Assembly: GCA_022644775.1 (NCBI GenBank)
Contig: JALCHN010000005.1
Span: 5,920-69,919, forward strand
Reading direction: 5' to 3'
DNA: 64,000 bases
From: Eggerthellaceae bacterium
GTDB lineage: Bacteria; Actinomycetota; Coriobacteriia; Coriobacteriales; Eggerthellaceae
Of this stretch, positions 4,060-27,232 are shown piece by piece. The translations under genes and the position numbers were made by a program. Within the stretch, counting starts at the first letter, position 1. Each line of letters starts with the position of its first letter. A model generated the notes under the pieces. It was not told the origin of the DNA. It made no database searches and was given only the letters and a program-made list of their open reading frames with translations.

Positions 4060-5712
4060 CTAAAGGCCCGAGCGGTCGTAGGCTTCAGAGGCGCGAGGGA
4101 GCGCTTGGGGAGCGCCCTGCGAGCCGAAGCCGCGCAGGGCGCGACGGACGCGCACAACAGCGCCGAAGACCGCCGGTTCGAGCTTGCGCATCCAGGCCGG
4201 GTTGAGCCACACGAGCGCCGCCAGCGCCGCCGCCGCCGCAGCCGCGACGAGCATGCCGACGATAACCTGGAGCACAGGGGCGGCCTGCTGCGCGTCGGCA
4301 CCCGCACCGGCGATCGCCGCGGCGGCCGTACCGTCGAGCGGCAGCATGGCGGAGAGGGGCACGAGCCCGTTTTCGTCGAAGAGGCCCGACGCCGTGTGGA
4401 AGGGCGAAGCGGCCGCATCGGCGACGGCCGCATCCTGAGCCGCGTCGGACACGGCGACGGGATTGTCGTACTGGGTGAGGTTGTAGGCGTTGATGAGGTC
4501 CTGCAGCTGAGCCGAATAGGTGGTCGAGGTGGCGTAGCGACCCTGCAGGTAGTTGCAGGCGTCCACATAGGACGTGCAGTTGCTCTTATGCGCCGGAGCG
4601 TAGAGCTTCGAGCCCACCAGTTCGGCGTAATCGAGCAGCGAATCGCGCGCCGTGGGATAGGCGCGGAAGGTCGCCGTGATCGTATAGGAATTGCCCGTGC
4701 CGTCGTCTTCCTTGGTGGGAAGGGACACGCTCATGCCCTGATAGGTGCCCTTGAGGCCGAAAAGGTTGTTGTAATTGGCGGAAAGGCCCGAAGAGCCCGA
4801 CCCGCTTTCGAGCACGGCCTGGGCGATCATGACCGACGCGTAGAGGTCGTGATCCTGGGCGATCACCTGGGCGTCGTCTTTGATCGAGTCGATGAAGGCC
4901 TGCGTGGTCTGGTTGGGTTTGATGCTGCCCATGATGTATTCCGCACCGCCCGTAGTCATGGGCTCAGCCTGGGCTTCGGTCGCATCCTGAGCCGGGGCGG
5001 CGTCAGTCGCAGCGGAATCGGTCGCAGGGGCGGCCGCGGGAGCGGCGGCAGACGACGACTCGCTCGCAGCGGGGGCGGCAGGCGCCGTCGCGCTCGAAGC
5101 GACGCTCGACGACGAGCTCGACGTCGATGAAGAGGACGACGACGAAGACGAGCTCGACGACGAGGACGAGTTGGCGGCATCCGATTGGAGCTTGGCGATC
5201 TTGGTGTGCTCGGTCGCCAGTTCCTTGGCCAGGCTCTGTTCATAGGCCGACCCGCTCGCGCAGAAGCTGGTGAGCCAGGCGGTGTCGATCTTCATGAAGG
5301 ATTCGGTGGCCACGGCGCGACCGGCCAGATAGTCGGTAAGGGCCTTGGTCGCCGCCGCATCGGCGCCGAACTTTTCGGCATAGGCCTGTTTGACGGCGGT
5401 GATGTCGGCCGCCTGAGCTTTGTCGGCCTTTGCGTACGTTTCGTTCTGCACCGTTGCGGGCACGCTCGCCGCCGCATCGGCGAGAGCAAGCTGTGGAGCC
5501 GTCGCCTGAACGACGACAAGCAGAAACGCGAGCATGCAGGCCAATAGCACCGACAACGCGCGATGCGCATGCGTCGAAAGCGCTCCCCCAGCGCCTGCGC
5601 ATGCCCTCTGCGAAGCGAGCGAGTGCGCCCGCTTCGATGTAGCTGAAAAGGAAACCCCCATTGGTAACGAACCCTTGCGAATCAGAAGCCGATAGTGTAT
5701 ACGACTCTCCAC
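4060..5712 (-). CDS. secreted peptidoglycan hydrolase, mannosyl-glycoprotein endo-beta-N-acetylglucosaminidase (LytD/FlgJ-type) domain
   Basis: Contains the glucosaminidase motif MIAQAVLESGSGSSGLSANYNNLFGLKG. It has an N-terminal signal/TM segment and a long poly-Ser/Ala-Pro linker. The start is uncertain; an alternative is the ATG at 5661 (MGVSFS). Confidence 0.8.
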   Translation of the reverse strand: MESRIHYRLLIRKGSLPMGVSFSATSKRAHSLASQRACAGAGGALSTHAHRALSVLLACMLAFLLVVVQATAPQLALADAAASVPATVQNETYAKADKAQAADITAVKQAYAEKFGADAAATKALTDYLAGRAVATESFMKIDTAWLTSFCASGSAYEQSLAKELATEHTKIAKLQSDAANSSSSSSSSSSSSSSSTSSSSSSVASSATAPAAPAASESSSAAAPAAAPATDSAATDAAPAQDATEAQAEPMTTGGAEYIMGSIKPNQTTQAFIDSIKDDAQVIAQDHDLYASVMIAQAVLESGSGSSGLSANYNNLFGLKGTYQGMSVSLPTKEDDGTGNSYTITATFRAYPTARDSLLDYAELVGSKLYAPAHKSNCTSYVDACNYLQGRYATSTTYSAQLQDLINAYNLTQYDNPVAVSDAAQDAAVADAAASPFHTASGLFDENGLVPLSAMLPLDGTAAAAIAGAGADAQQAAPVLQVIVGMLVAAAAAAALAALVWLNPAWMRKLEPAVFGAVVRVRRALRGFGSQGAPQALPRASEAYDRSGL

Positions 5713-5933: not shown

Positions 5934-5970
5934 TAAAAAAAGCGCGCGCCCCTGGGATGAGGCGCGCGCG
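5934..5970 (-). terminator. rho-independent terminator closing the haem operon and tRNA-Glu
   Basis: On the minus strand, immediately after the tRNA CCA end, there is a GC stem (gcgcgcgcc / ggcgcgcgc around a short loop) followed by a run of 7-8 T. Confidence 0.8.
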
Positions 5971-5977
5971 TGGGTTC

Positions 5978-6053
5978 TGGTGTCCCCTGAAGAATTCGAA
6001 TCTCCGTTGCCGGGTTGAGCACCCGGTGTCCTTGGCCGCTAGACGAAGGGGGC
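5978..6053 (-). tRNA. tRNA-Glu (anticodon CUC) with non-canonical G33 and a C2-A71 acceptor mismatch
   Basis: Minus strand reads GCCCCCTTCGTCTAGCGGCCAAGGACACCGGGTGCTCAACCCGGCAACGGAGATTCGAATTCTTCAGGGGACACCA. It folds as a cloverleaf with a 3-bp Glu-type D stem (U11-A24, U13-G22), a 4-nt variable loop, a TTCGAAT T-loop and an encoded CCA. The anticodon stem is CCGGG/CCCGG and the loop is T-G-C-T-C-A-A. I cross-checked the bases against three overlapping ORF-track translations. Confidence 0.8.
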
Positions 6054-6115
6054 GAATTGCCGTCCGTTCGGGACAACGTGAGTACTGTACCCGAAACGGC
6101 CCCGCCGCGCCACAG

Positions 6116-7414
6116 CTAGGCGGAAATACGGGAAGAATCCCTAAGGCTTTCCTCCACCGCGGCGCAGAAGGCGTCGATCTCCTCGTAGGTATGCGCAGCC
6201 GAAAGGAAGAGGCACTCGAACTGGCTCGGCGCAATGAGGAAGCCGCGGTCGAGCATGCCGCCGAAGTAGGCGGCGAAGGCTTCGGTGTCGCAGGTGGCCG
6301 CATCTTCCCAGCACGTGACCGGGCGGTCGGTGAAGAAGATCGTGGCCAGGCTGCCCACTCGGTTGAGCTGAGCCGTGACGCCGGCGCGCTCGATCGCCAG
6401 GCGCATGCCCTCTTCCCAGTAGGCGCCCTTCTTCTCGAGATCGTCGTAGAAGCCGGGCTTTTCGAGCTCGCGCAGCTGTGCCAGGCCCGCTTCCATGGCC
6501 ACGGGGTTGCCCGAAAGCGTGCCCGCCTGGTAGACCGGGCCGTCGGGCGCCAGGGCATCCATGATGTCGGCGCGTCCGGCGAAGCAGCCCACGGGGAAGC
6601 CGCCGCCGATGATCTTGCCGAAGGTGCACAGATCGGGCGTGACGCCGTAGCGCTCCTGGGCGCCGCCCAAGGCCGCGCGGAAGCCGCTGATGACCTCGTC
6701 GAAGATGAGCAGGGCGCCGTATTCGGTGCACACGTCGCGCAGGCCCTGCAGGAAGCCGCGCGCCGGGGGCACGCAGCCCATGTTGCCCGCGATGGGCTCC
6801 ACGATGATTGCGGCGATGTTGTCGGGGCATTCCGCGAAGGCGGCGCGCACCGCGTCGAGGTCGTTGTAGGGCAGCACGATCGTGTCGGCCACCGCGCCCG
6901 CCGTGACGCCCGGGGTCCCCGGGATGCCGAAAGTGACCACGCCCGAGCCGGCCGCCACGAGCAGGGCGTCGGAATGGCCATGGTAGTTGCCTTCGAACTT
7001 GATGAACTTGTCGCGATGGGTGTAGCCGCGGGCCAGGCGGATCGCGCTCATCGTGGCCTCGGTGCCGCTCGAGACCATGCGGGCCTTTTCGGCAGCCGGC
7101 ACCAGGCGGCAGATCTCTTCTGCCATCGTGATCTCGGCCTCGCAGGGGGCGCCGTAGGACATGCCGCGGTCAAGCTGGGCACGCACGGCCGCCTCGACGA
7201 CGTCGGGGCAATGGCCCAAGATCATGGGGCCCCAGCTGCCGATGAAATCGACGTACTCGTTGCCGTCGACGTCCCATACGTGGCTGCCCTTGGCGTGGTC
7301 GTAGAACACCGGCGTCGCGTTGACGTTGGCGAACGCGCGCACGGGGCTGTTCACGCCTCCCGGGATGCAGGAGCGCGCTTCGGCGAAATCCTTGCTCGAT
7401 TGCGAACGGTCCAT
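6116..7414 (-). CDS. hemL: glutamate-1-semialdehyde 2,1-aminomutase
   Basis: 432 aa with full-length family features (GGVNSPVRAF, class III aminotransferase core). It abuts the upstream gene with 0 nt spacing. Confidence 0.95.
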   Translation of the reverse strand: MDRSQSSKDFAEARSCIPGGVNSPVRAFANVNATPVFYDHAKGSHVWDVDGNEYVDFIGSWGPMILGHCPDVVEAAVRAQLDRGMSYGAPCEAEITMAEEICRLVPAAEKARMVSSGTEATMSAIRLARGYTHRDKFIKFEGNYHGHSDALLVAAGSGVVTFGIPGTPGVTAGAVADTIVLPYNDLDAVRAAFAECPDNIAAIIVEPIAGNMGCVPPARGFLQGLRDVCTEYGALLIFDEVISGFRAALGGAQERYGVTPDLCTFGKIIGGGFPVGCFAGRADIMDALAPDGPVYQAGTLSGNPVAMEAGLAQLRELEKPGFYDDLEKKGAYWEEGMRLAIERAGVTAQLNRVGSLATIFFTDRPVTCWEDAATCDTEAFAAYFGGMLDRGFLIAPSQFECLFLSAAHTYEEIDAFCAAVEESLRDSSRISA

Positions 7415-10021
7415 TTAGTCCTCCTCGACGAAATACGTCATCGACATCTTCTTGAACTCGTCGGTCGTAGAAAGCGCCTCGTGGCCGCGCACGGTCACGT
7501 CGGCATCCGCCAGGCGCTCTTCGAGCTCGCGCACGTGCGCAGCGAGCTCTTCGGCCGACTGGGCATGGCACATAGCGTACAGGTTGGCCTGCCAATGCTC
7601 GTTGCGCGGCCGGCTGTAGGCGTGAGAAACGAAGTCGGCGGCCTTGAACACGGCGCCGGCGGCATCGGCCTCGTCGTCGGGCACGTCCCACACCGTCATC
7701 GAATTATAGGCGTAGCCGATTTTGTGGTGGCGCACCATCGCGCCCACGCGGCGGGCCGATTTGGCTGCTTTCATCTGGCGCAGGCGCTCCATGACCATCT
7801 CTTCGGTCACGTCCTCGCGACCCAGTTCGGCGTTGATGGCCTGGGCCCCATAGGCGAAGGGGCGCTCGAGCAGCGCTGCGGCGGCGCGCTCCTGGGCGGC
7901 TTCGGCATCGGGAACGGCGCTCGCGCCGAAGCGGCCGGCCGTCTCCCCTTCCGCGGCGTCGGCGGCGGCGGTGGCCTCCTGGGCAGCGGCGATCGATTCG
8001 GGGCTGCGGCAGATGTCGCCCTGGGCCCAGCGCACCAACGCCACGTCGAAGGGGTCGGAGGCGTCGAAGGGCACGGGCTCGGCCGTCGGCTCGGCGGACA
8101 CGGTCTTCGCCGTGGAAGGCCGGTTGGCGGTCTTCAGCGACTCGCTTTCGGCGATCGCAGCGGCCACGGCGCGCGGGGCCTGCGCCACGCGGGCGCCCTT
8201 CTTCTTGCCCTGACGGCCGAAATCGACGCGTATCTTGTACATCTTGGTCGCCGGCAGGTCGAGAATCTCGTCGACGCCCGACCGTTCGCGAATCTGTTGC
8301 TTGATGCGCTCCTTCTCTTCGGGCGAGCGCGTGATGAGCGTGAACCAGAGGTTGTAGCGGTTGTCGCGCCCGTAGTTGTGGGTGATCTGCGGGAAGGACC
8401 CTACGATTCCGGCAACGCGCTCCAGTTCGGCCCGGCCGCCGGGCACCGCCATCGCGCAGAGGGTGCTCGTGTAGCCCAGCTTGCGGCTGTCGAAGGAAGC
8501 GCCCACGCGATGAACCATGTCGCGGCGGTAGAGGGTCGCGAGCGCGGAGCGCACCTGGTCGCGCGTAAGGCCCAGCTGGTCGGCGAGCGCCCCATAGGGG
8601 TCGGCCACGATCGGGAAGCCAGACTGGATCGTGTCGAGCACCAGATCACGGGCGTATTTGGGCGGCACGTAGGCGCAGTAGGGCTCGGTTTCCAGGTAGT
8701 CTCCGTAGACCGAAAGGGCGCGGGCGCGGCAACCGCCGCAGACGCCCTTGTACTCGCAGGCTCCGCACTTGCCCTTCAGGCGATCGTAGTGGCGCAAGTC
8801 GTCGAAGACCGGCGAGTTCGTCCAGATGTCGCTGAACTTCTGCTCCTTCACGTTGCCCAGCTGCATGTCGAAGTAGCCGCAGGGCTGCACGTCGCCGGTA
8901 TGCGAGATGAACACGAAGCTGATGCCGCCCAGGCAGCCGCGGCTCACCGCCATGCGGCCGTGGGTCGCCGGCGTGATGCGGATGCCCTCGCTTGCCGCTT
9001 GTTGGCGCATGATGCGGAAGTACTGCGGGGCGTCGGTGGGCTTGAAGGCCATGCAGGAGGTCTTCTGGCGATGGTAGGCCCAGGTAAGGACCTCGTCGTA
9101 CTCTTCGGGCGTGAGCTCGACGTCGATGAGGTCCTCGCCGCGGCCCGTGGGCACCAGCAGGAAGGGATGGAAGTCGGTGGCGCCGAGCTCCTTGCTCACG
9201 TTGTGGATCTCGTCGAGCTTGGTGGCGTTGGCCTTGGTGACCGTGGTGTTCACCTGCACGTGCACGCCGTACTTTTCCAGATTCTTGATGCCCTGCACCG
9301 TTTCATCGAAGGCGCCCTTTTGGCCGCGGAAGGCGTCCTGGCCTTCGGCGTCGGGGAAGTCGAGCGACACCGACACCTTGGGCACGCCGGCGTCGGCGAT
9401 CTTCTTGGCCATGGCGTCGTCGATCATCGTGCCGTTGGTGCCGATGACCGGGTGCAGGCCCTTTTCGAAGGCGTAGGCGATGATGTCCCAGATGTCGGGG
9501 CGCATGAGGGGCTCGCCGCCGGTGACGATGAGGATGGGGTCGCTGATCGAGGCGATGTCATCGATCACGGCCTTGCATTCCGCAAGCGACAGCTCGCCCG
9601 GGTAGGGCTCGAGATGGGCGGCGGCGCGACAGTGGGCGCAGGCCAGGTTGCAGCTGCGCGTGATCTCCCAGGCCACGATCGTGGGCGGCTTGATGCCCGT
9701 GCGCTCTTCGTAGGCCTTGGCCTGCGGGCTCGTGCCGGGACGGTAGCTCGATCCGCCCTTGGTGCCCGGCGCGGCGCCGGGGGCGGCACCGGGATGGTGG
9801 CCGCCCGTGATGGCGCCGGGATGGCCGGGGTGACCGCCGGCAGGCGCGCCGGTCGGATGGCCCGGATGCCCCGTGGGGCGGCCGGGGTGGGCGGCGGGCG
9901 CCGCGCCCGGGTGACCGCCCATGCCCGCCGGCATAACGGCCTGGGGTACCGTGCAGCCGGCGCGCTCGGCTTCGAGGCGCGCCTCTTCGGACATCTTGTC
10001 CAGTTCGTCGATGAGGGCCAT
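7415..10021 (-). CDS. fusion protein: radical SAM/SPASM haem synthase (AhbD-like) plus two siroheme decarboxylase (AhbA/AhbB, NirDL-like) modules, with a His/Pro/Gly-rich N-terminal tract
   Basis: 868 aa. Has the CxxxCxxC radical SAM motif (ITRSCNLACAHCR) and a SPASM-type Cys cluster (GKCGACEYKGVCGGCRARA). Two AsnC/Lrp-like modules follow (QITHNYGRDNRYNLWF; VSHAYSRPRNEHWQANLYAM). Residues about 33-85 contain repeated GHPG motifs. Confidence 0.8.
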   Translation of the reverse strand: MALIDELDKMSEEARLEAERAGCTVPQAVMPAGMGGHPGAAPAAHPGRPTGHPGHPTGAPAGGHPGHPGAITGGHHPGAAPGAAPGTKGGSSYRPGTSPQAKAYEERTGIKPPTIVAWEITRSCNLACAHCRAAAHLEPYPGELSLAECKAVIDDIASISDPILIVTGGEPLMRPDIWDIIAYAFEKGLHPVIGTNGTMIDDAMAKKIADAGVPKVSVSLDFPDAEGQDAFRGQKGAFDETVQGIKNLEKYGVHVQVNTTVTKANATKLDEIHNVSKELGATDFHPFLLVPTGRGEDLIDVELTPEEYDEVLTWAYHRQKTSCMAFKPTDAPQYFRIMRQQAASEGIRITPATHGRMAVSRGCLGGISFVFISHTGDVQPCGYFDMQLGNVKEQKFSDIWTNSPVFDDLRHYDRLKGKCGACEYKGVCGGCRARALSVYGDYLETEPYCAYVPPKYARDLVLDTIQSGFPIVADPYGALADQLGLTRDQVRSALATLYRRDMVHRVGASFDSRKLGYTSTLCAMAVPGGRAELERVAGIVGSFPQITHNYGRDNRYNLWFTLITRSPEEKERIKQQIRERSGVDEILDLPATKMYKIRVDFGRQGKKKGARVAQAPRAVAAAIAESESLKTANRPSTAKTVSAEPTAEPVPFDASDPFDVALVRWAQGDICRSPESIAAAQEATAAADAAEGETAGRFGASAVPDAEAAQERAAAALLERPFAYGAQAINAELGREDVTEEMVMERLRQMKAAKSARRVGAMVRHHKIGYAYNSMTVWDVPDDEADAAGAVFKAADFVSHAYSRPRNEHWQANLYAMCHAQSAEELAAHVRELEERLADADVTVRGHEALSTTDEFKKMSMTYFVEED

Positions 10022-10092: not shown

Positions 10093-11103
10093 TTAGCCCT
10101 GGGCCAGCCAGCGCGCGGCTTCCTTGGCGTGGTAGGTGATGATCATGTCGGCGCCGGCGCGCTTGATGCTCGTCAAGAGCTCGAGCACGACGCGCTTCTC
10201 GTCGATCCAGCCGTTGGCCGCAGCCGCCTTCACCATCGAGTACTCGCCCGACACGTTGTAGGCCACCGTGGGAAACTTGGTTTCGCTCTTCACGCGCTGC
10301 AGGACGTCGAGGTAGGGCAAGGCCGGCTTGACCATCACGACGTCGGCCCCTTCGGCGATGTCGTAGAAGGCCTCGCGCACGCCCTCTTCGACGTTGGCCG
10401 GGTCCATCTGATAGGCGCGGCGGTCGCCGAAGGCCGGCGTGGAATCGGCCGCGTCGCGGAAGGGACCGTAGAAGCCGCTCGCATACTTGGTCGAATAGCT
10501 CATGATCGGCACGTTCTGGTAGCCCGCGTCGTCGAGCGCGCGGCGCATGAACTGGATGCGGCCGTCCATCATGTCCGACGGCGCCACCATATGGGCGCCG
10601 GCGGCCGCCTGGCTCACCGCTTCGTTGGCGAGTAGCTTCAGGGTCTCGTCGTTCATGACGTAGCCGTTCTCGTCGAGCTTGCCGCAGTGGCCGTGGCTCG
10701 TGTACTCGCACATGCACACGTCGGTGATGATGTACATCTCGAGCGCGTTCTTGCGGATGATCCGGCAGGCTTCCTGCACGACGCCGTGCTCATCCCAGGC
10801 GCTCGAGCCGATTTCGTCCTTTTCAGCCGGGATGCCGAAGAGCAGGACGTAGTGCACGCCGCAGGCGAGCAGGTCGTCGATCTCGTCCATAAGCAGGTCG
10901 AGCGAAACCTGGAAGACGCCCGGCATGCTGGGAATCTCGTCGCGCTTGCCCTCGCCCGGCTTCACGAACAGGGGGTAGATGAAATCGTCGGCCGAAATCG
11001 TCGTCTCGCGGATGAAGTTGCGCGCGAGCCCGCCGTTGCGCATGCGGCGGGGACGATAGGCGGGGAACTTGCCGTATTCCATGATGAAGGTCACTTCTTC
11101 CAA
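10093..11103 (-). CDS. hemB: porphobilinogen synthase (delta-aminolevulinate dehydratase)
   Basis: 336 aa with typical HemB sequence (RPRRMR, CMCEYTSHGHCG zinc-type site, MVKPALPYLD). The start could be the internal ATG at 11082. Confidence 0.93.
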   Translation of the reverse strand: MEEVTFIMEYGKFPAYRPRRMRNGGLARNFIRETTISADDFIYPLFVKPGEGKRDEIPSMPGVFQVSLDLLMDEIDDLLACGVHYVLLFGIPAEKDEIGSSAWDEHGVVQEACRIIRKNALEMYIITDVCMCEYTSHGHCGKLDENGYVMNDETLKLLANEAVSQAAAGAHMVAPSDMMDGRIQFMRRALDDAGYQNVPIMSYSTKYASGFYGPFRDAADSTPAFGDRRAYQMDPANVEEGVREAFYDIAEGADVVMVKPALPYLDVLQRVKSETKFPTVAYNVSGEYSMVKAAAANGWIDEKRVVLELLTSIKRAGADMIITYHAKEAARWLAQG

Positions 11104-11157: not shown

Positions 11158-12441
11158 TTAGAGGGTCGACTGGGTGGCGGCGGACTGGCCGGCGGCCACG
11201 TCTTCGGGCAGGGCCTCTTCGACGATGCGCGTTTCGGGATCGTCGGGATGCTTGGCGATCTCCTCGTCGGTGAGGTAGCAGGCCGGGTCGGGGGCCCACA
11301 GGTCGCCCGTAGCGGCTTCGGCGCGCACGCGGAAGTTTCCGCCGCACACGTCGAGCCAACGGCAGTCGTGGCAACGGCCCTTTACCCAGGGGCGCTTGTC
11401 CTTCAGCTTGTACATGAGCTCGCTCTGCGGGGTCGTGCGGCTCGTGTCCGACCAGATCTCGCTGAAGGGACGGTCCTTCACGTTGCCGAAGCTGTAGTGG
11501 CGCCAGAACTGATCGGCGTAGACCTCGCCGTCCCAGCTCACGCAGGCAATGCCGTTGCCCGAAGAGTTGCCCTGGTTCCACTGCAGAAGCTGCATGACCT
11601 TTTCGGCGCGCTCGGGGTCTTCCTTCAAGAGTTCCATGTAGACGAAGGGGGCGTCGGCGTGGTTGTCGACGGTGAGGATCTCCGGCGTGCCGCCCTCGTC
11701 GAACCACTGCTTGGTACGGTCCATGATCAGGCGCACGGCCTGGCGGGTTTCCTCATGGGAAAGGTCCTCGTCGATCATTTCCGACCCGCGGCCCGAATAG
11801 ACCAGGTGGTAGAAGCAGGCGCGGTTGATGCCCTCGCGCTGCATGAGGTCGAAAATGTCGTTGATCTCGCGCCAGTTGTGCTTGTTGATCGTGAAGCGCA
11901 GGCCCACCTTGATGCCGGCGTCCTGGGCGTTGTGCAGGCCCTCGATCGCGCGGTCGAAGCTGCCTTTCACGCCGCGGAAGCGGTCATGGGTTTCGGGGTC
12001 GCCGTCGAAGGAGACGCCCACGTAGGACAGGCCCACCTCGGCGAAGGCAGCAGCCAGCTCCTTGGTGATGAGCGTGCCGTTGGTCGAGATGACCACGCGC
12101 ATGCCGGAATCCTTGGCGTAGCGGATGAGCTCGAGCAGGTCGGGGCGCATCGTGGGCTCGCCGCCGCTGAAGAGCAGGACGGGCGCGCCGAAGGCGGCCA
12201 GGTCGTCGATCATGGCCTTGGCCTCTTCGGTGGAAAGCTGCGGGTAGAGCTTGCCGTCGGACTGGGCGTAGCAATGCTCGCACTTCAGGTTGCAGGTGCG
12301 GGTGCAGTTCCACACCACGACGGGCTTCTTGTCTTTGGAAAACTGCAGAAGCCCGCTGGGGAGCTCCTTGCTGCGGCGCTTGTAGCGCAGCACGTCAGAG
12401 GGTTCCACCGCACCGCAGTAGAGTTTAGAGATGCCGATCAT
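11158..12441 (-). CDS. radical SAM/SPASM enzyme, NirJ/AhbC-like (probable Fe-coproporphyrin III synthase)
   Basis: 427 aa. Has the motif WNCTRTCNLKCEHCY and a C-terminal Cys cluster (GRCHDCRWLDVCGG). It sits inside the haem operon. Calling it AhbC rather than AhbD is inferred from motif resemblance only. Confidence 0.75.
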   Translation of the reverse strand: MIGISKLYCGAVEPSDVLRYKRRSKELPSGLLQFSKDKKPVVVWNCTRTCNLKCEHCYAQSDGKLYPQLSTEEAKAMIDDLAAFGAPVLLFSGGEPTMRPDLLELIRYAKDSGMRVVISTNGTLITKELAAAFAEVGLSYVGVSFDGDPETHDRFRGVKGSFDRAIEGLHNAQDAGIKVGLRFTINKHNWREINDIFDLMQREGINRACFYHLVYSGRGSEMIDEDLSHEETRQAVRLIMDRTKQWFDEGGTPEILTVDNHADAPFVYMELLKEDPERAEKVMQLLQWNQGNSSGNGIACVSWDGEVYADQFWRHYSFGNVKDRPFSEIWSDTSRTTPQSELMYKLKDKRPWVKGRCHDCRWLDVCGGNFRVRAEAATGDLWAPDPACYLTDEEIAKHPDDPETRIVEEALPEDVAAGQSAATQSTL

Positions 12442-12453
12442 GTAGGTTCCTTC

Positions 12454-14088
12454 CTAATCGAGCGCCGTCTGCAGTGCGCTCACGAGTCCGGGGATGGTGT
12501 AGCGGTCCGCCTCGACGGAGACGGGAATGCCGAGCGAGCGCATGGTGTCGCTCGTCACGGGGCCGATGCTCGCGCAGGTCACGCCTTCGAGCAGGCCGGG
12601 GATCCGGTCGGCCTCGACGGCGGTCGCCAGGAGCTGGCAGAAGTTGCGCGCCGTGCTCGAGCTCGTGAAGGTGACCGCGTCGATCGCGCCGTCGCGCAGA
12701 TCGGCCGCCAGCCGGCGGGTCGCCTCGTCGGCTTCGGGGCGCACGGTGTCGTAGGCGGGCATCACGTGCACGTCGGCGCCGGCCGCGGCGAGGGCGTCGG
12801 GCAGGGTGTCGCGGGCGACCGAAGCGCGCGGGATGAGCACGCTCGTGCCGCGCGTGACGCCGGCCGCGAGCAGGGCGTCGGCCACCGATTCGGCCACGAA
12901 ACGATCGGGCACGACGTCGGCCGCGATTCCGTGCGCGGCAAGCGCTGCAGCCGTGGCCGGGCCGATCGCAGCGACCTTCACGTCGCCGAAGATGCGGGCG
13001 TCGTGGCCGGTTTCGGCCAGCAGGTCGAAGAAGCAGGCCACGCCGTTGGCGCTCGTGAAGACGACCCAGTCGTAGACCTCGCGGGCCCCGGTGGCATCGC
13101 TGGCAAGCCGGGCGATGTCGGCGCGCATGTGAGCGTCGAGCGGGCGGGGCGCCACCTCGATCGTGGGGAATTCCACGATGTCGGCGCCGAGGGCCGCCAG
13201 CATGCCCGAAAGGCGGCTCGCCTGGGCGCGACTGCGCGTGACGACGACGCGCTTGCCGAAAAGCGGCCGGGCGTCGAACCAGCGCAGGTCTTGGCGCAGG
13301 TTCACCACCTCGCCCACCACGATGATCGCCGGCGCCTGGAAATGGGCGCGGTCGGCGTCCTGCACCACGGTGTCGAGCGTGCTCACCAGGGTCTCCTGGG
13401 CGGGCGTGGTGCCCCAGCGCACCAGGGCGACCGGCGTCGATTTGGGCCGGCCGTTCTCGATGAGGCGGCGGGCAATCGTGGGCAGGTCGCGGATGCCCAT
13501 GTAGAAGCACAGGGTCCCCGTGCCAGCGGCCAGGCCCTTCCAGTCGATGACCGGCTCGTCCTTGTGCGGCGTCTCGTGCCCGGTCACCAGGGTGACCTGG
13601 CTTGCCATCGTGCGGTGGGTGACGGGGATGCCCGCGTAGGCCGGTGCCGCCACGCCCGCGGTGACGCCGGGCACCACTTCGAAGGCGATGCCTGCCTCGA
13701 CGAGCGCGAGCGCCTCTTCCCCGCCGCGGCCGAAGACGAAGGGATCGCCGCCCTTCAGGCGCACGATGCGCCGCGGGCCGCCCGTGCGGGCGAGCTCGAC
13801 GAGCAGGTCGTTGATTTCGGGCTGGGTCACGTGATGGGAAAAGCCCTTCTTGCCTACGAAGTGCCTTTCGGCCGCCGGGTTGGCGAAGCGGACGACGGCG
13901 TCGTTGGCAAGATAGTCGTAGACCACGACGTCGGCGTCTTCGAGCAGGGCCTTGGCGCGCAGGGTGAGCAGACCCGGGTCGCCGGGGCCGGCGCCCACCA
14001 GGTAGACCACCGCGTGCGGGTCCTGGGCGGCCTCGCCCAAACGGGCAGCCGTGTATTCGTTGTGCGGGGCGTTGGATGCGTCGCTCAT
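12454..14088 (-). CDS. cobA-hemD: bifunctional uroporphyrinogen-III C-methyltransferase / uroporphyrinogen-III synthase
   Basis: The track ORF 12454..15120 is in frame, but its first 344 aa are an Arg/Pro-rich overlap with hemC. The real start is the ATG at 14088 (MSDASNAPHNEY). The SUMT motif VYLVGAGPGDPGLLTLRA is followed by a HemD domain. An ATGA overlaps the hemC stop. Confidence 0.9.
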   Translation of the reverse strand: MSDASNAPHNEYTAARLGEAAQDPHAVVYLVGAGPGDPGLLTLRAKALLEDADVVVYDYLANDAVVRFANPAAERHFVGKKGFSHHVTQPEINDLLVELARTGGPRRIVRLKGGDPFVFGRGGEEALALVEAGIAFEVVPGVTAGVAAPAYAGIPVTHRTMASQVTLVTGHETPHKDEPVIDWKGLAAGTGTLCFYMGIRDLPTIARRLIENGRPKSTPVALVRWGTTPAQETLVSTLDTVVQDADRAHFQAPAIIVVGEVVNLRQDLRWFDARPLFGKRVVVTRSRAQASRLSGMLAALGADIVEFPTIEVAPRPLDAHMRADIARLASDATGAREVYDWVVFTSANGVACFFDLLAETGHDARIFGDVKVAAIGPATAAALAAHGIAADVVPDRFVAESVADALLAAGVTRGTSVLIPRASVARDTLPDALAAAGADVHVMPAYDTVRPEADEATRRLAADLRDGAIDAVTFTSSSTARNFCQLLATAVEADRIPGLLEGVTCASIGPVTSDTMRSLGIPVSVEADRYTIPGLVSALQTALD

Positions 14089-15023
14089 CGCAGTTCCTCC
14101 AGAATCTCTTCGGCGCCCTGGTCGCGCAGGTCGCAGACCACGGAACGGGCGAGCTCGGTCGAGGCCGCGGGGTCGCCTTCGGCCGAAGCGCGCAGGAAGC
14201 GCCTGCCATCGAGCGAGCTCACGAAGGCGTCGATGCCGAAGACCGTGGCGCCGTCGCGGTCGAATTCGGCGGCGTAGATGCCCATGGGCACCTGGCAGCC
14301 GCCTTCGAGCGCGCCCAACACGACGCGTTCGGCCGCCACGCAGCGCAGGGTCGACTCGTCGGAAATCGCGGCGCAGAGGGCGTTGGCCACTTCGTCGTCG
14401 GCGCGGGTCTCGATCGCGATGGCGCCCTGCCCCGCCGCCGGAATCATGACGTCGGTGGGCAGGTAGCTGGCGATGCGGTCCTGCATCCCCAGGCGCGTGA
14501 GGCCCGACGAGGCCAAGATCGCCGCGTCGAACTCGCCGTCCATCACGCGGCGGGTGCGCGTGTCGATGTTGCCGCGCATCTCGCAGGTCTCGATGTCGGG
14601 GCGCAGGCGCTTTAACTGGGCCATGCGGCGCAGGCTTCCGGTGGCCACGCGGGCGCCCTGCGGCAGCGTGTCGAGCGTGAGGCCGGGCGTGGCCGACACG
14701 AGGGCGTCGCGCGGGTCGGCGCGCAGGGGCATGCCGGAAAGCACCAGGCCGTCGGGCAGCTCGGTGGGCATGTCTTTGGTGGAATGCACGCACAGGTCGA
14801 CGCGGCCGTCGAGCAGCTCGACTTCGAGCTCCTTGGTGAACAGGCCCTTTCCACCGATCTTCGACAGGGCGACGTCGCGAATCTTGTCGCCTTTCGTGTG
14901 CACCACTTCGATGCGGTAGTCGTACTGGGGCGCGTAGGCCTCCAGCAGCCCCCGCACGAATTCGGTCTGCCACAGGGCCAGCTGACTGCCCCGCGACCCC
15001 AACACGATCGTGTTGTTCTCCAC
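14085..15023 (-). CDS. hemC: hydroxymethylbilane synthase (porphobilinogen deaminase)
   Basis: The track ORF 14085..15167 is trimmed to the GTG at 15023 (VENNTIVLGSRGSQLALWQTE). AGGAGGAGG lies 5-6 nt upstream, and the start sits just after the hemA stop. Confidence 0.9.
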   Translation of the reverse strand: MENNTIVLGSRGSQLALWQTEFVRGLLEAYAPQYDYRIEVVHTKGDKIRDVALSKIGGKGLFTKELEVELLDGRVDLCVHSTKDMPTELPDGLVLSGMPLRADPRDALVSATPGLTLDTLPQGARVATGSLRRMAQLKRLRPDIETCEMRGNIDTRTRRVMDGEFDAAILASSGLTRLGMQDRIASYLPTDVMIPAAGQGAIAIETRADDEVANALCAAISDESTLRCVAAERVVLGALEGGCQVPMGIYAAEFDRDGATVFGIDAFVSSLDGRRFLRASAEGDPAASTELARSVVCDLRDQGAEEILEELR

Positions 15024-15034
15024 GGTTCCTCCTC

Positions 15035-16384
15035 CTACATGGGATGGTTGGCCGACGCATGCGACGGCACGGTGTGCGGCGCGGCGATCTCGCCGGCATC
15101 GAGGGCGTGCGCGTGGGCAACCATGCCGTTGGAATAGCCCCACAGGTAGCGCACCGCCTCGACGCATTCGAAATCGGCGTTGTTGCGCGTGCTCTCCTTC
15201 AGGCGCACGGTGGGCTCGTGAAGGAGCTTCTTCACGATGGCTTCGGTCGCCTTCTGCACGGCCCAGCGGTCCTCTTCGGAAAGGTCGACCGAAAGGGCCT
15301 TCATCAGGCGGTCGAACTCGCGCTGGCGCATGTCTTCGGCGTCGGCGCGCATCCGCTTGATGGTCGGCGTGACGGCGTGCTCCCCCACCCAGTAGAGGAA
15401 CGACCGCGTCTCCTCGTCGACGATGTCGTTGGCGCGGGCGGCGGCCGCCTTGCGCTCTTCTTGGTTGCGCTCGATGATCTCACCGATGTCGTCTAGGTTG
15501 CACACGGTCACGTTGGGCACCGCGCGGCAGGCGTCGTCGACGTCGCGCGGCAGGGCGATGTCCAGGATGAGCAGGTGCTTGGTGGTGTGCGCCAGAAGCT
15601 CGGGCGTGATGATGCAGTGCGGGGCCGCCGTCGCACTGATCACGATGTCGGCCTCGCCGATGAGCTCGGGCAAGTCGGTGAACTGGCGGGCGACGCCGCC
15701 CAGCTCGCGGGCGAGCGTGCAGGCGTGCGCGTAGGTGCGGCTCGACACGAAGAAGGTCTCGACACCCTGCTCTTTGAGGTACTGGGCCGCGAGCTCGCTC
15801 ATCTCGCCGGAGCCCAGCACGAGGACCGTCTTGCCTTTCAGGGTCTCGAATTCGGCGCGGGCCACGTCGACGGCCACGGTGGAAAGGGAGACGTGGTTTT
15901 CGCTCACCGACGTCTCGTTGCGCACGCGCTTGCCGCAGGAGAGCGCCTGGCGGAACATGTGCGCGAGGGCCATCGTGCAGGAGCCGGCTTCCATCGCGCT
16001 GCGGAAGGCCGTGCGCACCTGGCCCAGGATCTGCTGCTCGCCTAAGACCATCGAATCGAGCGAGGAGATCACGCCGAACAGGTGGTGGACGGCCTCAAAG
16101 CCCTGGCGGCGGTAGAGGTGGCCTTCGAATTCGGCGCGGTCGACATGCTTGAAGGCCTCGATAAAGGCCACGATATCGGCGTAGGCCGCAGAGGCGTCGC
16201 TCGAGTCGACGTAAATCTCCATGCGGTTGCAGGTCGACAGGATGACCGCCCCGCGCACGCTGTCGTAGCGGCAGAGCGCATGGAGCGCGTCGCCCAGCAC
16301 GGGGCGGTTGAACGCGACCTTTTCCCGAACATCGACCTCAGCCGTTTTGTAGCTGAGCCCCAACATGCAAATTTGCACCGACAA
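15035..16384 (-). CDS. hemA: glutamyl-tRNA reductase
   Basis: 449 aa. Begins MLGLSYKTAEVDVREKVAF and carries the catalytic-Cys motif LSTCNRMEIY and an NADPH-binding domain. Confidence 0.95.
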   Translation of the reverse strand: MSVQICMLGLSYKTAEVDVREKVAFNRPVLGDALHALCRYDSVRGAVILSTCNRMEIYVDSSDASAAYADIVAFIEAFKHVDRAEFEGHLYRRQGFEAVHHLFGVISSLDSMVLGEQQILGQVRTAFRSAMEAGSCTMALAHMFRQALSCGKRVRNETSVSENHVSLSTVAVDVARAEFETLKGKTVLVLGSGEMSELAAQYLKEQGVETFFVSSRTYAHACTLARELGGVARQFTDLPELIGEADIVISATAAPHCIITPELLAHTTKHLLILDIALPRDVDDACRAVPNVTVCNLDDIGEIIERNQEERKAAAARANDIVDEETRSFLYWVGEHAVTPTIKRMRADAEDMRQREFDRLMKALSVDLSEEDRWAVQKATEAIVKKLLHEPTVRLKESTRNNADFECVEAVRYLWGYSNGMVAHAHALDAGEIAAPHTVPSHASANHPM

Positions 16385-16437: not shown

Positions 16438-17127
16438 TTAATCGATCTGCGGGGTGCCCTTCTTCGCCGCCGCGACCGCTTCGTTATAGGCGTCTTCGGC
16501 CGAAATCTGCTCGCCGGCCGCCAGACGCTCGCGCCAGTTGGCTCGCACGCAGGCCTCGAAGATGGGGCGGCGATCGCGCTGGCTGGTGGTCACACGGTCC
16601 TTCACCATCGTGCGCACGCAGGCCATAAGGTCGAGATAGGCTTCCCAACTATCGTCGAACTGGTCTTCGAGCGAACGGCGGATGAGCTTCGATTCGGTGC
16701 AGGATGCGCCCGACGTCGACACGGCGATCGAAAGCAGGCCGCGGCGCAGGATGGAAGGAACGACGAAATCGCAGTACTTGGGCACGTCGACCACGTTCAT
16801 CAGGCAGCCGGTCGCGCGCGCTTCCTCGAACACGCGGGCGTCGGTGGCCGCGTCGCCGCAGGCGCAGAAGCCGATCGAGGCCCCTGCCAGGTCGCCGGGC
16901 TCGAAAACGCGGCGCTTCCAGACGATGTCGCCCGCTTCGGCATGGGCGGCGATTGAATCGCTCGCTTCGGGCGAGATCACGGTGACGGCGGCGCCGTAGC
17001 CGAGCAGGGTGTCGACCTTGCGCGTGGCGACGGAGCCCCCGCCGATCACGACGACGGGGCGATCTTTCATGTCCAGGAAAATAGGGTAGCCGGCGCGGTA
17101 GTCCGCGTGCGTCTGCATGTCGGGCAT
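16438..17127 (-). CDS. sirC: precorrin-2 dehydrogenase / sirohydrochlorin ferrochelatase (SirC / CysG N-domain / Met8-like)
   Basis: 229 aa with the Rossmann motif VVVIGGGSVATRKVDTLL. It is the first gene of the haem operon. Confidence 0.8.
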   Translation of the reverse strand: MPDMQTHADYRAGYPIFLDMKDRPVVVIGGGSVATRKVDTLLGYGAAVTVISPEASDSIAAHAEAGDIVWKRRVFEPGDLAGASIGFCACGDAATDARVFEEARATGCLMNVVDVPKYCDFVVPSILRRGLLSIAVSTSGASCTESKLIRRSLEDQFDDSWEAYLDLMACVRTMVKDRVTTSQRDRRPIFEACVRANWRERLAAGEQISAEDAYNEAVAAAKKGTPQID

Positions 17128-17303: not shown

Positions 17304-18251
17304 TTAAGCGCCGGTTGTGCTGCTCGACGAAGAGCTCGAAGACGAAGAGGACGACGCGATGCTCGCGGCCTTTTCCGCGTTCGGGGTGAGGGCGTAGCCG
17401 GACAGGTCGATCGTGTCGCCGAGCCACTTCTGCTCGATAACGTCGATCGTGCCGTTCTGAGAAATGGTGCTCAGGGCGTTCGAAACGGCCGTCTGCAGAT
17501 CGGCGTTGCTCTTGCCCACTCCGATGCGGTAACCGTCGACCTTCTGCATGAGACCGACGATACGGGCGTCGGCGCCCATCGAGTGGCTGACGTAGGTGCC
17601 CACGATGGCGTCGGAGGCCACGTAGTTCACCTGGCCTCCCACGAGGTCGGTGAACGCCGACTTCAGGTCGGAGGCCGACTTGAGCTGGGTGTCACCGTAC
17701 TGGTTGGACACCTCCCATGCGCTCATCGAAGCCGATTGGGCCTCGATCTGCTCTCCCTTGGAAGGAAGGCCGGTCGCGTCGATCGAGAAGAGGGCGACTG
17801 CGGTGGGCAGGTAGGCGTTGGTGACGGCCGTGGTAGACGAGGCGTCGTCGGAAGAGAGCCCCATCACGATGTCGACAGAGCCGTCCTTCAGGGCCCCTTC
17901 GGCGTCGGCGCCCACATCGACCAGCTGGAGGTCGAGGCCCATCTGGGTAGCGAGGGCGGCTGCCACATCAACGTCGATGCCAGCGAGCTTTCCGTTCGCC
18001 TGAGTGGAGAAAGGAGCGTTCGACGAGCTCACGCCCACGCGCAAAACGCCGTCCTCGCCGATCGTGGGCGACGACACGACGGCCGCGTTCTTCTGCGGGG
18101 TGTACGCCTCCTGCTGCGACCCGATGCCCAACTGCTGCAACTGGCTGCAGCCCGTCAGGCAGGCAACCAACGCGCACATTGCGAACACGAGAACGGCAAG
18201 TGACGTACGACGCTTCATAGACTCTCCCTTTTCCTGCGTTTGCTTCTCCAT
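17304..18251 (-). CDS. ABC-transporter substrate-binding lipoprotein (amino-acid binding, family 3) with a C-terminal poly-Ser tail
   Basis: Has a signal peptide plus lipobox (LVACLTGCS) and a PBP type 2 domain. It ends in SSSSSSSSSSSSTTGA. The likely start is the ATG at 18218 (MKRRTS). There are no permease or ATPase genes nearby. Confidence 0.8.
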   Translation of the reverse strand: MEKQTQEKGESMKRRTSLAVLVFAMCALVACLTGCSQLQQLGIGSQQEAYTPQKNAAVVSSPTIGEDGVLRVGVSSSNAPFSTQANGKLAGIDVDVAAALATQMGLDLQLVDVGADAEGALKDGSVDIVMGLSSDDASSTTAVTNAYLPTAVALFSIDATGLPSKGEQIEAQSASMSAWEVSNQYGDTQLKSASDLKSAFTDLVGGQVNYVASDAIVGTYVSHSMGADARIVGLMQKVDGYRIGVGKSNADLQTAVSNALSTISQNGTIDVIEQKWLGDTIDLSGYALTPNAEKAASIASSSSSSSSSSSSTTGA

Positions 18252-18576
18252 CGCTTTGCGGCTGACCTAGTCTTCGCCCCCACACTCGCGCACCGGGGTT
18301 GAGCTCTCACCATCGCCCTCTCGCCCGTGCGGCCGGGTGCCGCAAATCGACGGACGGTGCGTCTTACATCTAGAATGCGCCGTGCTCACCTGCGCGCGGC
18401 ATGCGCCCGCGCAATGGCTTACGTGGATCCTTTTGACCGCATCTGCCTTGGAATAGGGGGTCTGTCGACCCCTGCAACTACAGCCCGCAAAAGCATTTTG
18501 GAATTCTAGCAGACTCGCGGGGCGGCGCTTCCCGATTGCTCAATATCAACACCCTTGGAAGCGCCTCGCCCCGGGG

Positions 18577-22572: not shown

Positions 22573-22646
22573 TGGAGCGGGTGACGGGAATCGAACCCGC
22601 GTTACCAGCTTGGAAGGCTGGAGTTCTACCATTGAACCACACCCGC
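22573..22646 (-). tRNA. tRNA-Gly (anticodon UCC)
   Basis: Minus strand reads GCGGGTGTGGTTCAATGGTAGAACTCCAGCCTTCCAAGCTGGTAACGCGGGTTCGATTCCCGTCACCCGCTCCA. It forms a clean cloverleaf with loop CTTCCAA. Confidence 0.93.
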
Positions 22647-22669
22647 ATGGTGGGCGCTCGAGCAAAAAG

Positions 22670-22746
22670 TGGTCGGGACGACAGGATTTGAACCTGCGAC
22701 ATCCTGCTCCCAAAGCAGGCGCGCTACCAAACTGCGCCACGTCCCG
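22670..22746 (-). tRNA. tRNA-Pro (anticodon UGG)
   Basis: Minus strand reads CGGGACGTGGCGCAGTTTGGTAGCGCGCCTGCTTTGGGAGCAGGATGTCGCAGGTTCAAATCCTGTCGTCCCGACCA. It forms a clean cloverleaf with loop TTTGGGA. Confidence 0.93.
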
Positions 22747-26854: not shown

Positions 26855-27232
26855 TGGTGGAGGCGCGGAGAATCGAACTCCGGTCCATACTAAGCAATCC
26901 CCCAGGCTCTACAAGCTTATGCGGCGGAAAGATCTCGACTGCGCGGTACCCGTCGCCGTGCGGCGCGCAGCCCAACCGGTTCCGTCTTAGCCCAAGCCAT
27001 ACCGATTACGTGCTTGGGAGCACCTTCCTGAAATGACACCGCAGCAAAGCCGGAAAGTGAACTCTGCGTTGGCGCGCCAGCTTTAAATTAAGCGGCGAGT
27101 GCGTACTGCTGAGCAGGACGCACGAAAGAAATCTTTTTGCCAATTAAATTGACGGTACCCCTGTTTTACGTGGCGAGGAGACCACGACCTGCTCCTCGGT
27201 TCAAACCTACCATGTCGAAACCAGTCGCCCCC
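26855..27232 (-). ncRNA. ssrA: tmRNA (SsrA)
   Basis: The minus-strand 5' end is GGGGGCGACTGGTTTCGAC. The 3' end is the tRNA-Ala-like CGGAGTTCGATTCTCCGCGCCTCCACCA. An internal tag reading frame ends ...CCT GCT CAG CAG TAC GCA CTC GCC GCT TAA (PAQQYALAA-stop). The resume codon is not determined. Confidence 0.9.

Follow-up and report, generated by a model that had tools for sequence, protein, structure and literature searches.

Glutamyl-tRNA is the one aminoacyl-tRNA common to protein and tetrapyrrole synthesis, and how it is partitioned between the two is a long-standing question. To our knowledge, the known cases concern isoacceptors that are excluded from the haem branch, and no natural haem-biased tRNA has been shown. 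Here we examine a locus that bears on this question, found in an Eggerthellaceae bacterium (assembly GCA_022644775.1, contig JALCHN010000005.1). In the 64,000-nucleotide stretch that was analysed (the window), an unusual tRNA-Glu(CUC) gene follows hemL, at the end of a haem biosynthesis cluster. A first-pass annotation had suggested that this tRNA could be specialised for tetrapyrrole synthesis, that is, poor in translation but still charged and reduced. Is it such a tRNA, or is it an ordinary redundant isoacceptor, an RNA with some other role, or a damaged gene? On comparative sequence evidence, the gene is functional and belongs to a tRNA-Glu lineage of its own, here called group A. The best reading, to which we give even chances, is that it encodes a chargeable tRNA-Glu that would be poor in translation and would supply glutamyl-tRNA reductase (GluTR, encoded by hemA).

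ARAGORN identified four RNA genes in the window, among them a tRNA-Glu(ctc) at 5978-6053, the coordinates already given in the first pass. The gene is 76 nt long including an encoded CCA and is read on the minus strand from 6053 to 5978. Its sequence, 5' to 3', is GCCCCCU UC GUCU AGCGGCCAA GGAC A CCGGG UGCUCAA CCCGG CAAC GGAGA UUCGAAU UCUUC AGGGGAC A CCA, and its features are the following:

5978-6053, minus strand: tRNA-Glu(CUC) of the group A type (ARAGORN; RF00005, 42.5 bits; cloverleaf covariation in 17 homologues)
6015-6021, minus strand: anticodon loop U32-G33-C34-U35-C36-A37-A38, with G33 at 6020 and the anticodon CUC at 6019-6017
6052, minus strand: C2 opposite A71 (5983), a C·A mismatch in the acceptor stem (sequence; NC mark in the Rfam alignment)
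5993-6001, minus strand: A53 (6001) and U61 (5993) around the T loop UUCGAAU, replacing the near-universal G53-C61 (sequence)

Both deviations that had been picked out in the first pass, G33 and C2·A71, are present in the sequence (at 6020 and at 6052/5983), as are the D-arm features of tRNA-Glu (U11-A24 and U13·G22) and the 4-nt variable loop that it had described (CAAC, which has A46 and lacks nt 47); the A53-U61 pair and a G·U pair at 50:64 had been missed. The tRNA shares with E. coli-type tRNA-Glu these D-arm hallmarks and the variable-loop traits, together with a 3-bp D stem, A37, G1-C72, a YUC anticodon and overall sequence similarity. Where a canonical elongator has U33 in a 7-nt loop, G53-C61 and a fully paired acceptor stem, it has G33, A53-U61 and C2·A71, and it further differs from the E. 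coli type in having A51-U63 rather than G51-C63. In E. coli, recognition by glutamyl-tRNA synthetase (GluRS) depends on U35, C36, U11-A24, U13-G22:A46 and the absence of nt 47 (PMC9976931). All of these are present in the window tRNA, as are A37 and G1-C72, which complete the identity set against which it was compared, and across group A the set is nearly invariant. Like other CUC isoacceptors, the tRNA has C34, and C2·A71 stands in place of U2-A71, a weak determinant of the E. coli enzyme.

When searched with the Rfam tRNA model (RF00005) over a range of 101 nt, the gene scored 42.5 bits over model positions 1-71, against a gathering threshold of 29. Together with the ARAGORN call and a minimum-free-energy (MFE) fold that corresponds to the cloverleaf, this places it among tRNAs. 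In the MFE fold the anticodon stem is 6 bp long and closes a 5-nt loop, U32 and A38 being able to pair, and the 1:72/2:71 end is open. The score is the lowest of the tRNAs seen: the other two tRNAs of the window, tRNA-Gly and tRNA-Pro, reach 74 and 69 bits, the canonical tRNA-Glu(CUC) of Arabiibacter reaches 63.7 bits, and group A homologues lie at 43-55 bits. Rfam scans of the whole window and of 451 nt returned no tRNA match at the locus, from which we initially took the tRNA to be very degenerate. This idea was dropped with the 101-nt scan, and since the narrow scan scores 42.5 bits, the misses can be attributed to a filter effect.

Are the deviations real? Haem loci were gathered through homologues of the window HemL, and metagenome contigs were scanned with the 5' half of the tRNA. 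HemL of the window is 78% identical to that of Denitrobacterium detoxificans and 71% identical to those of Slackia heliotrinireducens and Arabiibacter massiliensis, and its 90%-identity cluster includes Hugonella massiliensis and 'Denitrobacterium sp.' metagenome-assembled genomes. An identical tRNA lies behind an identical hemL on a metagenome contig (L177), and in the isolate genome of Hugonella massiliensis (GCA_001486445, L090) the tRNA differs solely at nt 44, with G33 and C2·A71 kept. This all but rules out a sequencing or assembly error. In a lineage with HemL 82% identical (L006/L007), G33 and the C·A mismatch occur with a different 31:39 pair and with G37, and at a locus with HemL 72% identical (L213) G33 occurs with C2-G71. 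On a neighbour-joining tree of HemL, C2·A71 marks a single clade (the window, Hugonella, L006, Denitrobacterium L001 and L119/L159) that spans HemL identities down to 74%, and G33 appears at two separate places; outside the clade, the 2:71 pair is C-G, or U-A in L212. Relatives such as Slackia (L003) do have U33 and a paired 2:71 at the locus, which on the first pass's own criterion would tell against its idea; the deviations are, however, not strain-specific. What did not hold up is the idea that G33 would be conserved in orthologues, as position 33 is U in 8, C in 8 and G in 4 of the 20 distinct group A members with a 7-nt loop.

What, then, is conserved? Group A tRNAs have a T arm of the form G-N-A/G-G-A UUCRAAU YCUNC, an NRAC variable loop and a CCA that is part of the gene. 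Of the distinct sequences of this kind, 17 make up alignment A1 and five more were tabulated alongside. Invariant in A1 are nt 1-6, nt 8-25 (including the whole D arm), U35, C36, C48, G49, G52, A53, most of the T loop, A73 and CCA, and A46 is A in all group A members but one. The 5' 26 nt of metagenome-derived members were preset by the search pattern; in the eight lineages found via HemL alone, these 26 nt vary solely at nt 2, 16 and 19. The cloverleaf is paired in 96.6% of the cells of A1, a figure equalled by none of 500 shuffles, and the observed register beats all slid registers. Five pairs, namely 7:66, 30:40, 31:39, 50:64 and one more in the anticodon stem, show compensatory changes on both sides. 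Pairing fails in A1 at two places alone, 2:71 (C·A in 5 of 17) and 53:61 (A·C in 7 of 17). The latter arises where position 61, which is U in 12 and C in 8 of 20 members, is C opposite an A53 that is invariant in group A. Elsewhere in the T stem, 49:65 is G-C in 20/20 members, and 51:63 is A-U in 18/20, G·U in 2/20 and never G-C (0/20). A tRNA pseudogene is all but ruled out by the compensatory stem changes, by the invariant D arm and T loop, and by the conservation of the gene over HemL identities of 66-100%.

The anticodon loop behaves differently from this body. As a control, ARAGORN was run on all sequences collected for comparison, and U precedes the anticodon in every one of the 128 other distinct tRNAs, 11 tRNA-Val from like loci among them (Fisher p = 8.6e-13 against the variable position 33 of group A). 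The 7-nt loops seen in group A are UGCUCAA, UGCUCGA, CGCUCGA, UUCUCAG, CUCUCAC, CUCUCAG, UCCUCAA, UCUUCAA (anticodon UUC) and CCCUCAG, and the anticodon is YUC in every member. Loop length varies too. A hem-adjacent member (L212:11366-11440) has a 6-nt loop, CUUCAA, and a non-gut metagenome member (L196:8564-8640) has an 8-nt loop, CUUCUCGG; both have the body and CCA intact, and ARAGORN reports both as 'tRNA-???'. Pairing across 32:38 (C-G, U-A or U·G) is possible in 16 of the 17 A1 sequences and in 18 of 20 of the larger set, and is impossible in tRNA-Val, in the canonical CUC tRNA and in the tRNA-Glu(UUC) that we call group B and describe below. A case in point is Arabiibacter (L005) with contigs L144 and L151, in which the flanking DNA is 80-88% identical. 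Their tRNAs are identical outside the anticodon arm, their loops are UCCUCAA, UCUUCAA and UUCUCAG, and 31:39 shows a compensatory change from C-G to U-A. In one gut lineage, seen in four human-gut contigs (L122, L134:3076-3151, L136 and L144:7124-7199) the anticodon has switched from CUC to UUC with C33 kept (loop UCUUCAA), which leaves a tRNA one base off the hem-adjacent tRNA of Arabiibacter. From these alignments, position 33 is unconstrained in group A and G33 itself is not a conserved trait.

We considered A53-U61 as a third 'defect' of the window tRNA and rejected it as a diagnostic feature, because a canonical-looking tRNA-Glu(UUC) of related genomes has it as well.

Turning to the surroundings of the gene, the window tRNA follows a cluster of eight genes that is a siroheme-dependent (Ahb-type) haem cluster. 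In the order of transcription, the cluster and the elements behind it are:

16438-17127, minus strand: sirC/Met8-like precorrin-2 dehydrogenase, the first cluster gene (Pfam NAD_binding_7 and Sirohm_synth_M)
15035-16384, minus strand: hemA, glutamyl-tRNA reductase, the consumer of Glu-tRNA(Glu) (Pfam GlutR_N, Shikimate_DH and GlutR_dimer)
14085-15167, minus strand: hemC, porphobilinogen deaminase, start codon uncertain (Pfam)
12454-13899, minus strand: cobA/hemD fusion, uroporphyrinogen-III methyltransferase and synthase, start codon uncertain (Pfam TP_methylase and HEM4)
11158-12441, minus strand: radical SAM/SPASM enzyme, an Ahb-type haem synthesis step (Pfam)
10093-11103, minus strand: hemB, 5-aminolaevulinate (ALA) dehydratase (Pfam ALAD, E = 7.5e-148)
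7415-10021, minus strand: fusion of a radical SAM/SPASM half with a siroheme decarboxylase-like half (NirDL/AsnC, AhbA/B-type), an open reading frame (ORF) of 868 aa (Pfam)
6116-7414, minus strand: hemL, glutamate-1-semialdehyde (GSA) 2,1-aminomutase (Pfam Aminotran_3, E = 5.5e-76)
6054-6115, minus strand: spacer of 62 nt between hemL and the tRNA, with a hairpin that lacks a T run and a -10-like hexamer TACAGT (sequence, terminator prediction, folding)
5935-5969, minus strand: intrinsic terminator with an 11-bp G+C stem, a 6-nt loop and T7, beginning 8 nt past CCA (fold -25.2 kcal/mol, z = -5.1)

The homologues of hemL in Denitrobacterium, Slackia, Arabiibacter and Hugonella are named GSA aminomutase, and the sirC-like gene has an equivalent position in L005, L090, L211, L212 and L216. 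The fusion ORF begins with an N-terminal His/Pro/Gly-rich stretch of about 100 residues with HPGHPTG repeats. Its two halves are likewise fused in L003, L090, L212 and L216 and are separate genes in L001, L006 and L008; the radical SAM half is absent from that position in L005, L211 and L213.

The first pass had placed the tRNA 62 nt past the hemL stop, with no terminator between them and a strong one immediately after, and this arrangement was borne out. As no terminator-like site is predicted in the 62-nt spacer and a strong one follows the tRNA, read-through from hemL into the tRNA, ending at this terminator, is plausible in the window lineage. A TAnnnT hexamer that resembles a -10 element (TACAGT, TAGAGT, TAGGAT, TATTAT or TATACT) is, however, present in the spacer of the window and in those of all its relatives compared, so that the tRNA may possess a promoter of its own.

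Is the proximity of tRNA and haem genes more than a peculiarity of this genome? Among Eggerthellaceae, 15 distinct lineages have a group A tRNA beside the haem operon, and its placement takes three forms (same strand, convergent, and upstream of hemA), as follows:

Same strand, 8-72 nt past hemL: window, L090, L006, L001, L005, L211, L212 and L213
Same strand, about 110 nt past hemL: L216
Same strand, 1.1 kb past hemL: Slackia L003
Same strand, metagenome contigs: L122/L134/L136/L144, L151, L168, L169 and L177
Convergent with hemL, sharing a common terminator: L119/L143/L159
About 1.8 kb upstream of hemA: L191

By comparison, 0 of 78 loci from other phyla have a tRNA-Glu within 10 kb of hemL, and an nhmmer search with the family profile likewise gave no match. 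The link to haem genes that had been put up for testing in related genomes is therefore borne out by 15 Eggerthellaceae lineages set against 0/78 unrelated loci, although it is incomplete, since one close relative lacks the tRNA and non-gut copies, both discussed below, are unlinked. The first pass had also called the tRNA the last cistron of the haem operon. In the window the tRNA does stand directly after hemL and before the terminator, but the description is not general, given the convergent copies in L119/L143/L159 and the copy upstream of hemA in L191; this variable orientation argues against obligatory co-transcription.

On the far side of the tRNA the neighbours vary by lineage and include glucosaminidase, sufBD, thiC with a thiamine pyrophosphate (TPP) riboswitch, NiFe hydrogenase, DUF1846, DUF364 and other genes. 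In Arabiibacter, for example, the TPP riboswitch (L005:9518-9646) and thiC lie beyond the hem-adjacent tRNA and its terminator. With a different gene there in almost every lineage, the tRNA could be a hotspot for recombination or integration. A separate observation concerns contigs L214 and L215, of the same HemL clade as L159, which end 130-210 nt past hemL (L214:11339-11551, L215:11339-11465), where divergence from the 94%-identical L159 begins; these ends suggest that the stretch from hemL to the convergent tRNA has taken up a repeated or mobile element. The haem cluster of L214/L215 has DsrC, NrfD and CbiA-like genes and no Ahb genes.

The remaining neighbours in the window itself are as follows. 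The product of the gene past the tRNA terminator (4060-5712, minus strand) combines a glucosaminidase domain with a long low-complexity tract rich in Ser. A gene for a family-3 solute-binding protein (17304-18251, minus strand) lies just ahead of the haem cluster and is itself directly preceded by a raiA RNA motif (18253-18493, minus strand; RF03072, 121 bits). A canonical tRNA-Pro(UGG)/tRNA-Gly(UCC) pair is found at 22573-22746 (minus strand), and a canonical transfer-messenger RNA (tmRNA; 137 bits) with the tag peptide GKKISFVRPAQQYALAA at 26855-27232 (minus strand).

We then asked whether the cell could dispense with this tRNA in translation. In eight ORFs of the window, namely seven of the eight haem-cluster genes and the downstream glucosaminidase gene, the 249 Glu codons comprise 149 GAG and 100 GAA (40% GAA); the glucosaminidase gene favours GAA over GAG (13 vs 4), unlike the haem genes. 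The E. coli tRNA-Glu(UUC) reads both Glu codons, and a CUC anticodon is unable to read GAA. Because GAA makes up 40% of the Glu codons, a tRNA-Glu(UUC) must be encoded elsewhere in the genome, and the window tRNA is by this inference not its only reader of GAG. In Arabiibacter (L005), a second CUC tRNA is present: a canonical tRNA-Gln(CUG)-tRNA-Glu(CUC) pair lies 6 kb from the hem-adjacent copy, and this canonical tRNA-Glu(CUC) has U33, G53-C61, G49-U65, C51-G63 and a 5-nt variable loop. The site of the tRNA-Gln/tRNA-Glu pair is not conserved in the close relatives of Arabiibacter.

The metagenome scan also recovered group B, a tRNA-Glu(UUC) present in about 60 copies that hardly differ from one another. 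It has the same 5' half as group A, a CAAC variable loop, A53-U61, G51-C63 and a canonical loop, CUUUCAA. Its gene stands behind purH and tRNA-Lys(UUU) in at least 15 loci, among which PurH is only 64-78% identical (e.g. L110:165-240, L161:8002-8077 and L126:5587-5662), and this synteny was found only in non-gut metagenome contigs. Two of these contigs, L121 and L126, also have a group A tRNA, which is located 1-4 kb downstream of group B and is immediately followed by tRNA-Val(UAC), and the same Glu(CUC)-Val pair occurs in L108, L160, L162 and L188. On this sequence evidence, group A probably arose by duplication of the local tRNA-Glu(UUC), followed by a change of the anticodon to CUC.

A number of these observations, with some further ones, weigh against a role in haem synthesis, and several of them favour the main rival, in which group A is an ordinary, redundant translational tRNA-Glu(CUC) under weak selection for decoding and lies next to hemL through inherited gene order. 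Redundancy would be provided by the UUC tRNA, which already reads GAG, and in some genomes by a second CUC tRNA. The non-gut carriers of group A are high-G+C contigs, mostly with C33, in which the gene is part of an ordinary array of tRNA genes, Lys(UUU)-Glu(UUC)...Glu(CUC)-Val(UAC); no tetrapyrrole genes were found near these copies within up to 9 kb by tblastn and Pfam. Since they have no haem genes nearby, the odd loop would be older than the haem linkage or independent of it, and since the unusual loop is not tied to haem adjacency, the adjacency in Eggerthellaceae could be inherited synteny. Nor is the linkage complete or uniform. Curtanaerobium respiraculi (HemL 77% identical) has the operon with no tRNA within 10 kb, the operons of L008 and L009, two uncultured loci of the Coriobacteriia type, lack a group A tRNA-Glu, and the orientation to hemL varies, the tRNA being convergent in L119/L143/L159, located before hemA in L191 and 1.1 kb off in Slackia. 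As to the molecule itself, about 40% of group A members keep U33 with a normal-looking loop, every member keeps a YUC anticodon and the Rfam tRNA threshold is still passed. Substitutions of U33 lower but do not abolish tRNA function in vitro, and A53-U61 is a lineage trait rather than a defect, because the related, presumably translational tRNA-Glu(UUC) shares it. We nevertheless consider a redundant translational tRNA unlikely, if worth serious attention. Weak selection should erode the whole molecule, whereas here only ribosome-facing positions drift and the body is invariant or compensated, even in the members with 6-nt and 8-nt loops, which retain an intact body and CCA. U33 is, moreover, present in all 128 of the other tRNAs examined, redundant ones included, and adjacency to haem genes has outlasted at least three rearrangements and the turnover of far-side genes.

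Simple decay does not fit, for similar reasons, namely that the body is conserved, the changes are compensatory and the 6- and 8-nt-loop members are otherwise intact. A pseudogene or an assembly or sequencing error, which the lowest RF00005 score, the acceptor mismatch and the non-U33 loop might suggest, is essentially excluded by the identical copy on L177, the 1-nt variant in Hugonella massiliensis, the C·A mismatch common to a clade reaching 74% HemL identity, the compensatory changes in four stem pairs and at 32:38, the invariant D arm, T loop and CCA, and the strong terminator directly after the tRNA. A further rival is a non-translational tRNA with a role other than GluTR supply, which might serve another Glu-tRNA enzyme, act as a regulatory or charging sensor, or provide an RNase P/RNase Z site at which the haem mRNA acquires a defined and stable 3' end. 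A conserved body with a free loop points to a non-ribosomal use without specifying which, the non-gut members are not beside haem genes, and in the window, L005 and L211 the tRNA lies 8-62 nt past hemL, on the same strand and before the terminator, as a 3'-end function would have it. However, no gene for a LanB-type dehydratase, an aminoacyl-transferase or a cyclodipeptide synthase occurs in the flanks examined. A pure processing signal would require neither Glu identity elements nor a YUC anticodon, and the convergent and upstream arrangements cannot serve as an mRNA 3' end. Such another role thus seems improbable to us, and in Eggerthellaceae GluTR is the obvious consumer, being encoded in the adjacent operon.

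The two loci without a group A tRNA-Glu, L008 and L009, do have a tRNA gene of another kind within the hem cluster: a canonical tRNA-Ala(CGC) (L008:6187-6262, L009:6303-6378) lies between the radical SAM gene and a 72-aa ORF/hemB, and is followed by a hairpin, so that the cluster is split.

How might a tRNA-Glu diverted to haem synthesis work? Among the Eggerthellaceae of gut and rumen, group A has come to adjoin the siroheme-dependent haem operon. Strong purifying selection on the body maintains what folding, processing and charging by GluRS require, that is, the acceptor stem, the D arm, the core formed by U13·G22, A46 and the missing nt 47, U35, C36, the T loop and CCA. It has been released on the needs of elongation factor Tu (EF-Tu) and the ribosome, namely U33, an open 7-nt loop, G-C at 51:63 and a fully paired 2:71. 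The U-turn made by U33 has been proposed to be necessary for translocation, and affinity for EF-Tu is set by the T-stem pairs 49:65, 50:64 and 51:63 (PMC11231383). In the window tRNA these are G49-C65, G50·U64 and A51-U63. EF-Tu and GluTR compete for Glu-tRNA, and in Acidithiobacillus ferrooxidans isoacceptors differ as substrates of GluTR (PMC4284751). A tRNA of this kind would then be charged with glutamate yet be a weak competitor for EF-Tu and the ribosome. The resulting Glu-tRNA would mostly be left for HemA, encoded in the adjacent operon, and haem synthesis would thereby be given activated glutamate partly insulated from protein synthesis.

Taken more broadly, this would make group A a Coriobacteriia tRNA-Glu lineage that is effectively out of translation, a dedicated glutamate carrier for GluTR tied to the haem operon in Eggerthellaceae, with a drifting loop (U, C or G33; 5- to 8-nt) and with frozen GluRS and GluTR surfaces. 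We put this wider statement forward tentatively, at somewhat less than an even chance. Of the specialised tRNA-Glu first proposed for this locus, the deviant sequence, the family-wide linkage and the fitting pattern of constraint have survived comparison; G33 as a conserved trait and the last-cistron position as a general one have not, and the non-gut copies are unlinked.

The concept of tRNA isoacceptors diverted to non-ribosomal pathways is already known in kind. We know of no description, however, of a haem-biased, translation-poor tRNA-Glu, or of one linked to a hem operon, and full-text searches of the literature returned neither a hem-operon-linked tRNA-Glu nor a bacterial tRNA family with a variable position 33. 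The nearest parallel is the non-proteinogenic tRNA-Gly of Staphylococcus aureus, a glycine donor to FemXAB for peptidoglycan cross-bridges, which is recognised by the absence of G49-U65 and G51-C63 (PMC12256121). Group A likewise lacks both pairs; G51-C63 is still present in group B, and G49-U65 in the canonical CUC tRNA. In both systems there is an extra isoacceptor, shown for group A in Arabiibacter and deduced for the window genome, with deviations at near-universal elongator positions and a proposed escape from EF-Tu to the benefit of a metabolic enzyme. The S. aureus tRNA-Gly is charged by the normal synthetase, as we infer for group A, and its function has been shown biochemically, whereas that of group A is deduced here. 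The amino acid and the pathway differ, the deviations of group A are centred on the anticodon loop (33, 32:38 and loop length), and the S. aureus genes lie in tRNA/rRNA operons rather than beside pathway genes.

Two further systems concern tRNA-Glu itself. A. ferrooxidans resembles the present case in having several tRNA-Glu per cell that differ in their use by GluTR and translation (PMC4284751), but its 'tRNA-Glu that uncouples protein and tetrapyrrole biosynthesis' is the reverse case, a tRNA for protein synthesis that is not a GluTR substrate. In Coxiella burnetii, tRNA-Glu2(CUC) is an extra isoacceptor whose main role has been argued to be haem synthesis and not translation, and its deletion slows growth (PMC5423948). 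There, too, the haem role was deduced; the gene, proposed to be horizontally acquired, lies beside a toxin-antitoxin system and not beside hem genes, and no deviations at 33, 2:71 or the T stem are reported for it (PMC5423948).

The finding should interest specialists in tRNA and tetrapyrroles. It also bears on annotation, where group A genes receive the label of an ordinary tRNA-Glu or 'tRNA-???' and can be missed by filtered covariance-model scans. For experiment, the lineage amounts to a natural series: over 20 variants share an identical body, differ in the anticodon loop and lie next to hemA-hemL in gut bacteria whose respiration depends on haem-requiring reductases. Genetic tools in the form of shuttle vectors exist for Eggerthella lenta, a relative (PMC9734109). 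This makes it possible to ask whether evasion of EF-Tu channels Glu-tRNA to GluTR, which features of the tRNA are read by GluTR, and how free U33 and the loop become once selection by the ribosome stops. If the preferred reading is true, group A would be the first natural 'haem tRNA', a tetrapyrrole counterpart of the staphylococcal cell-wall tRNA-Gly.

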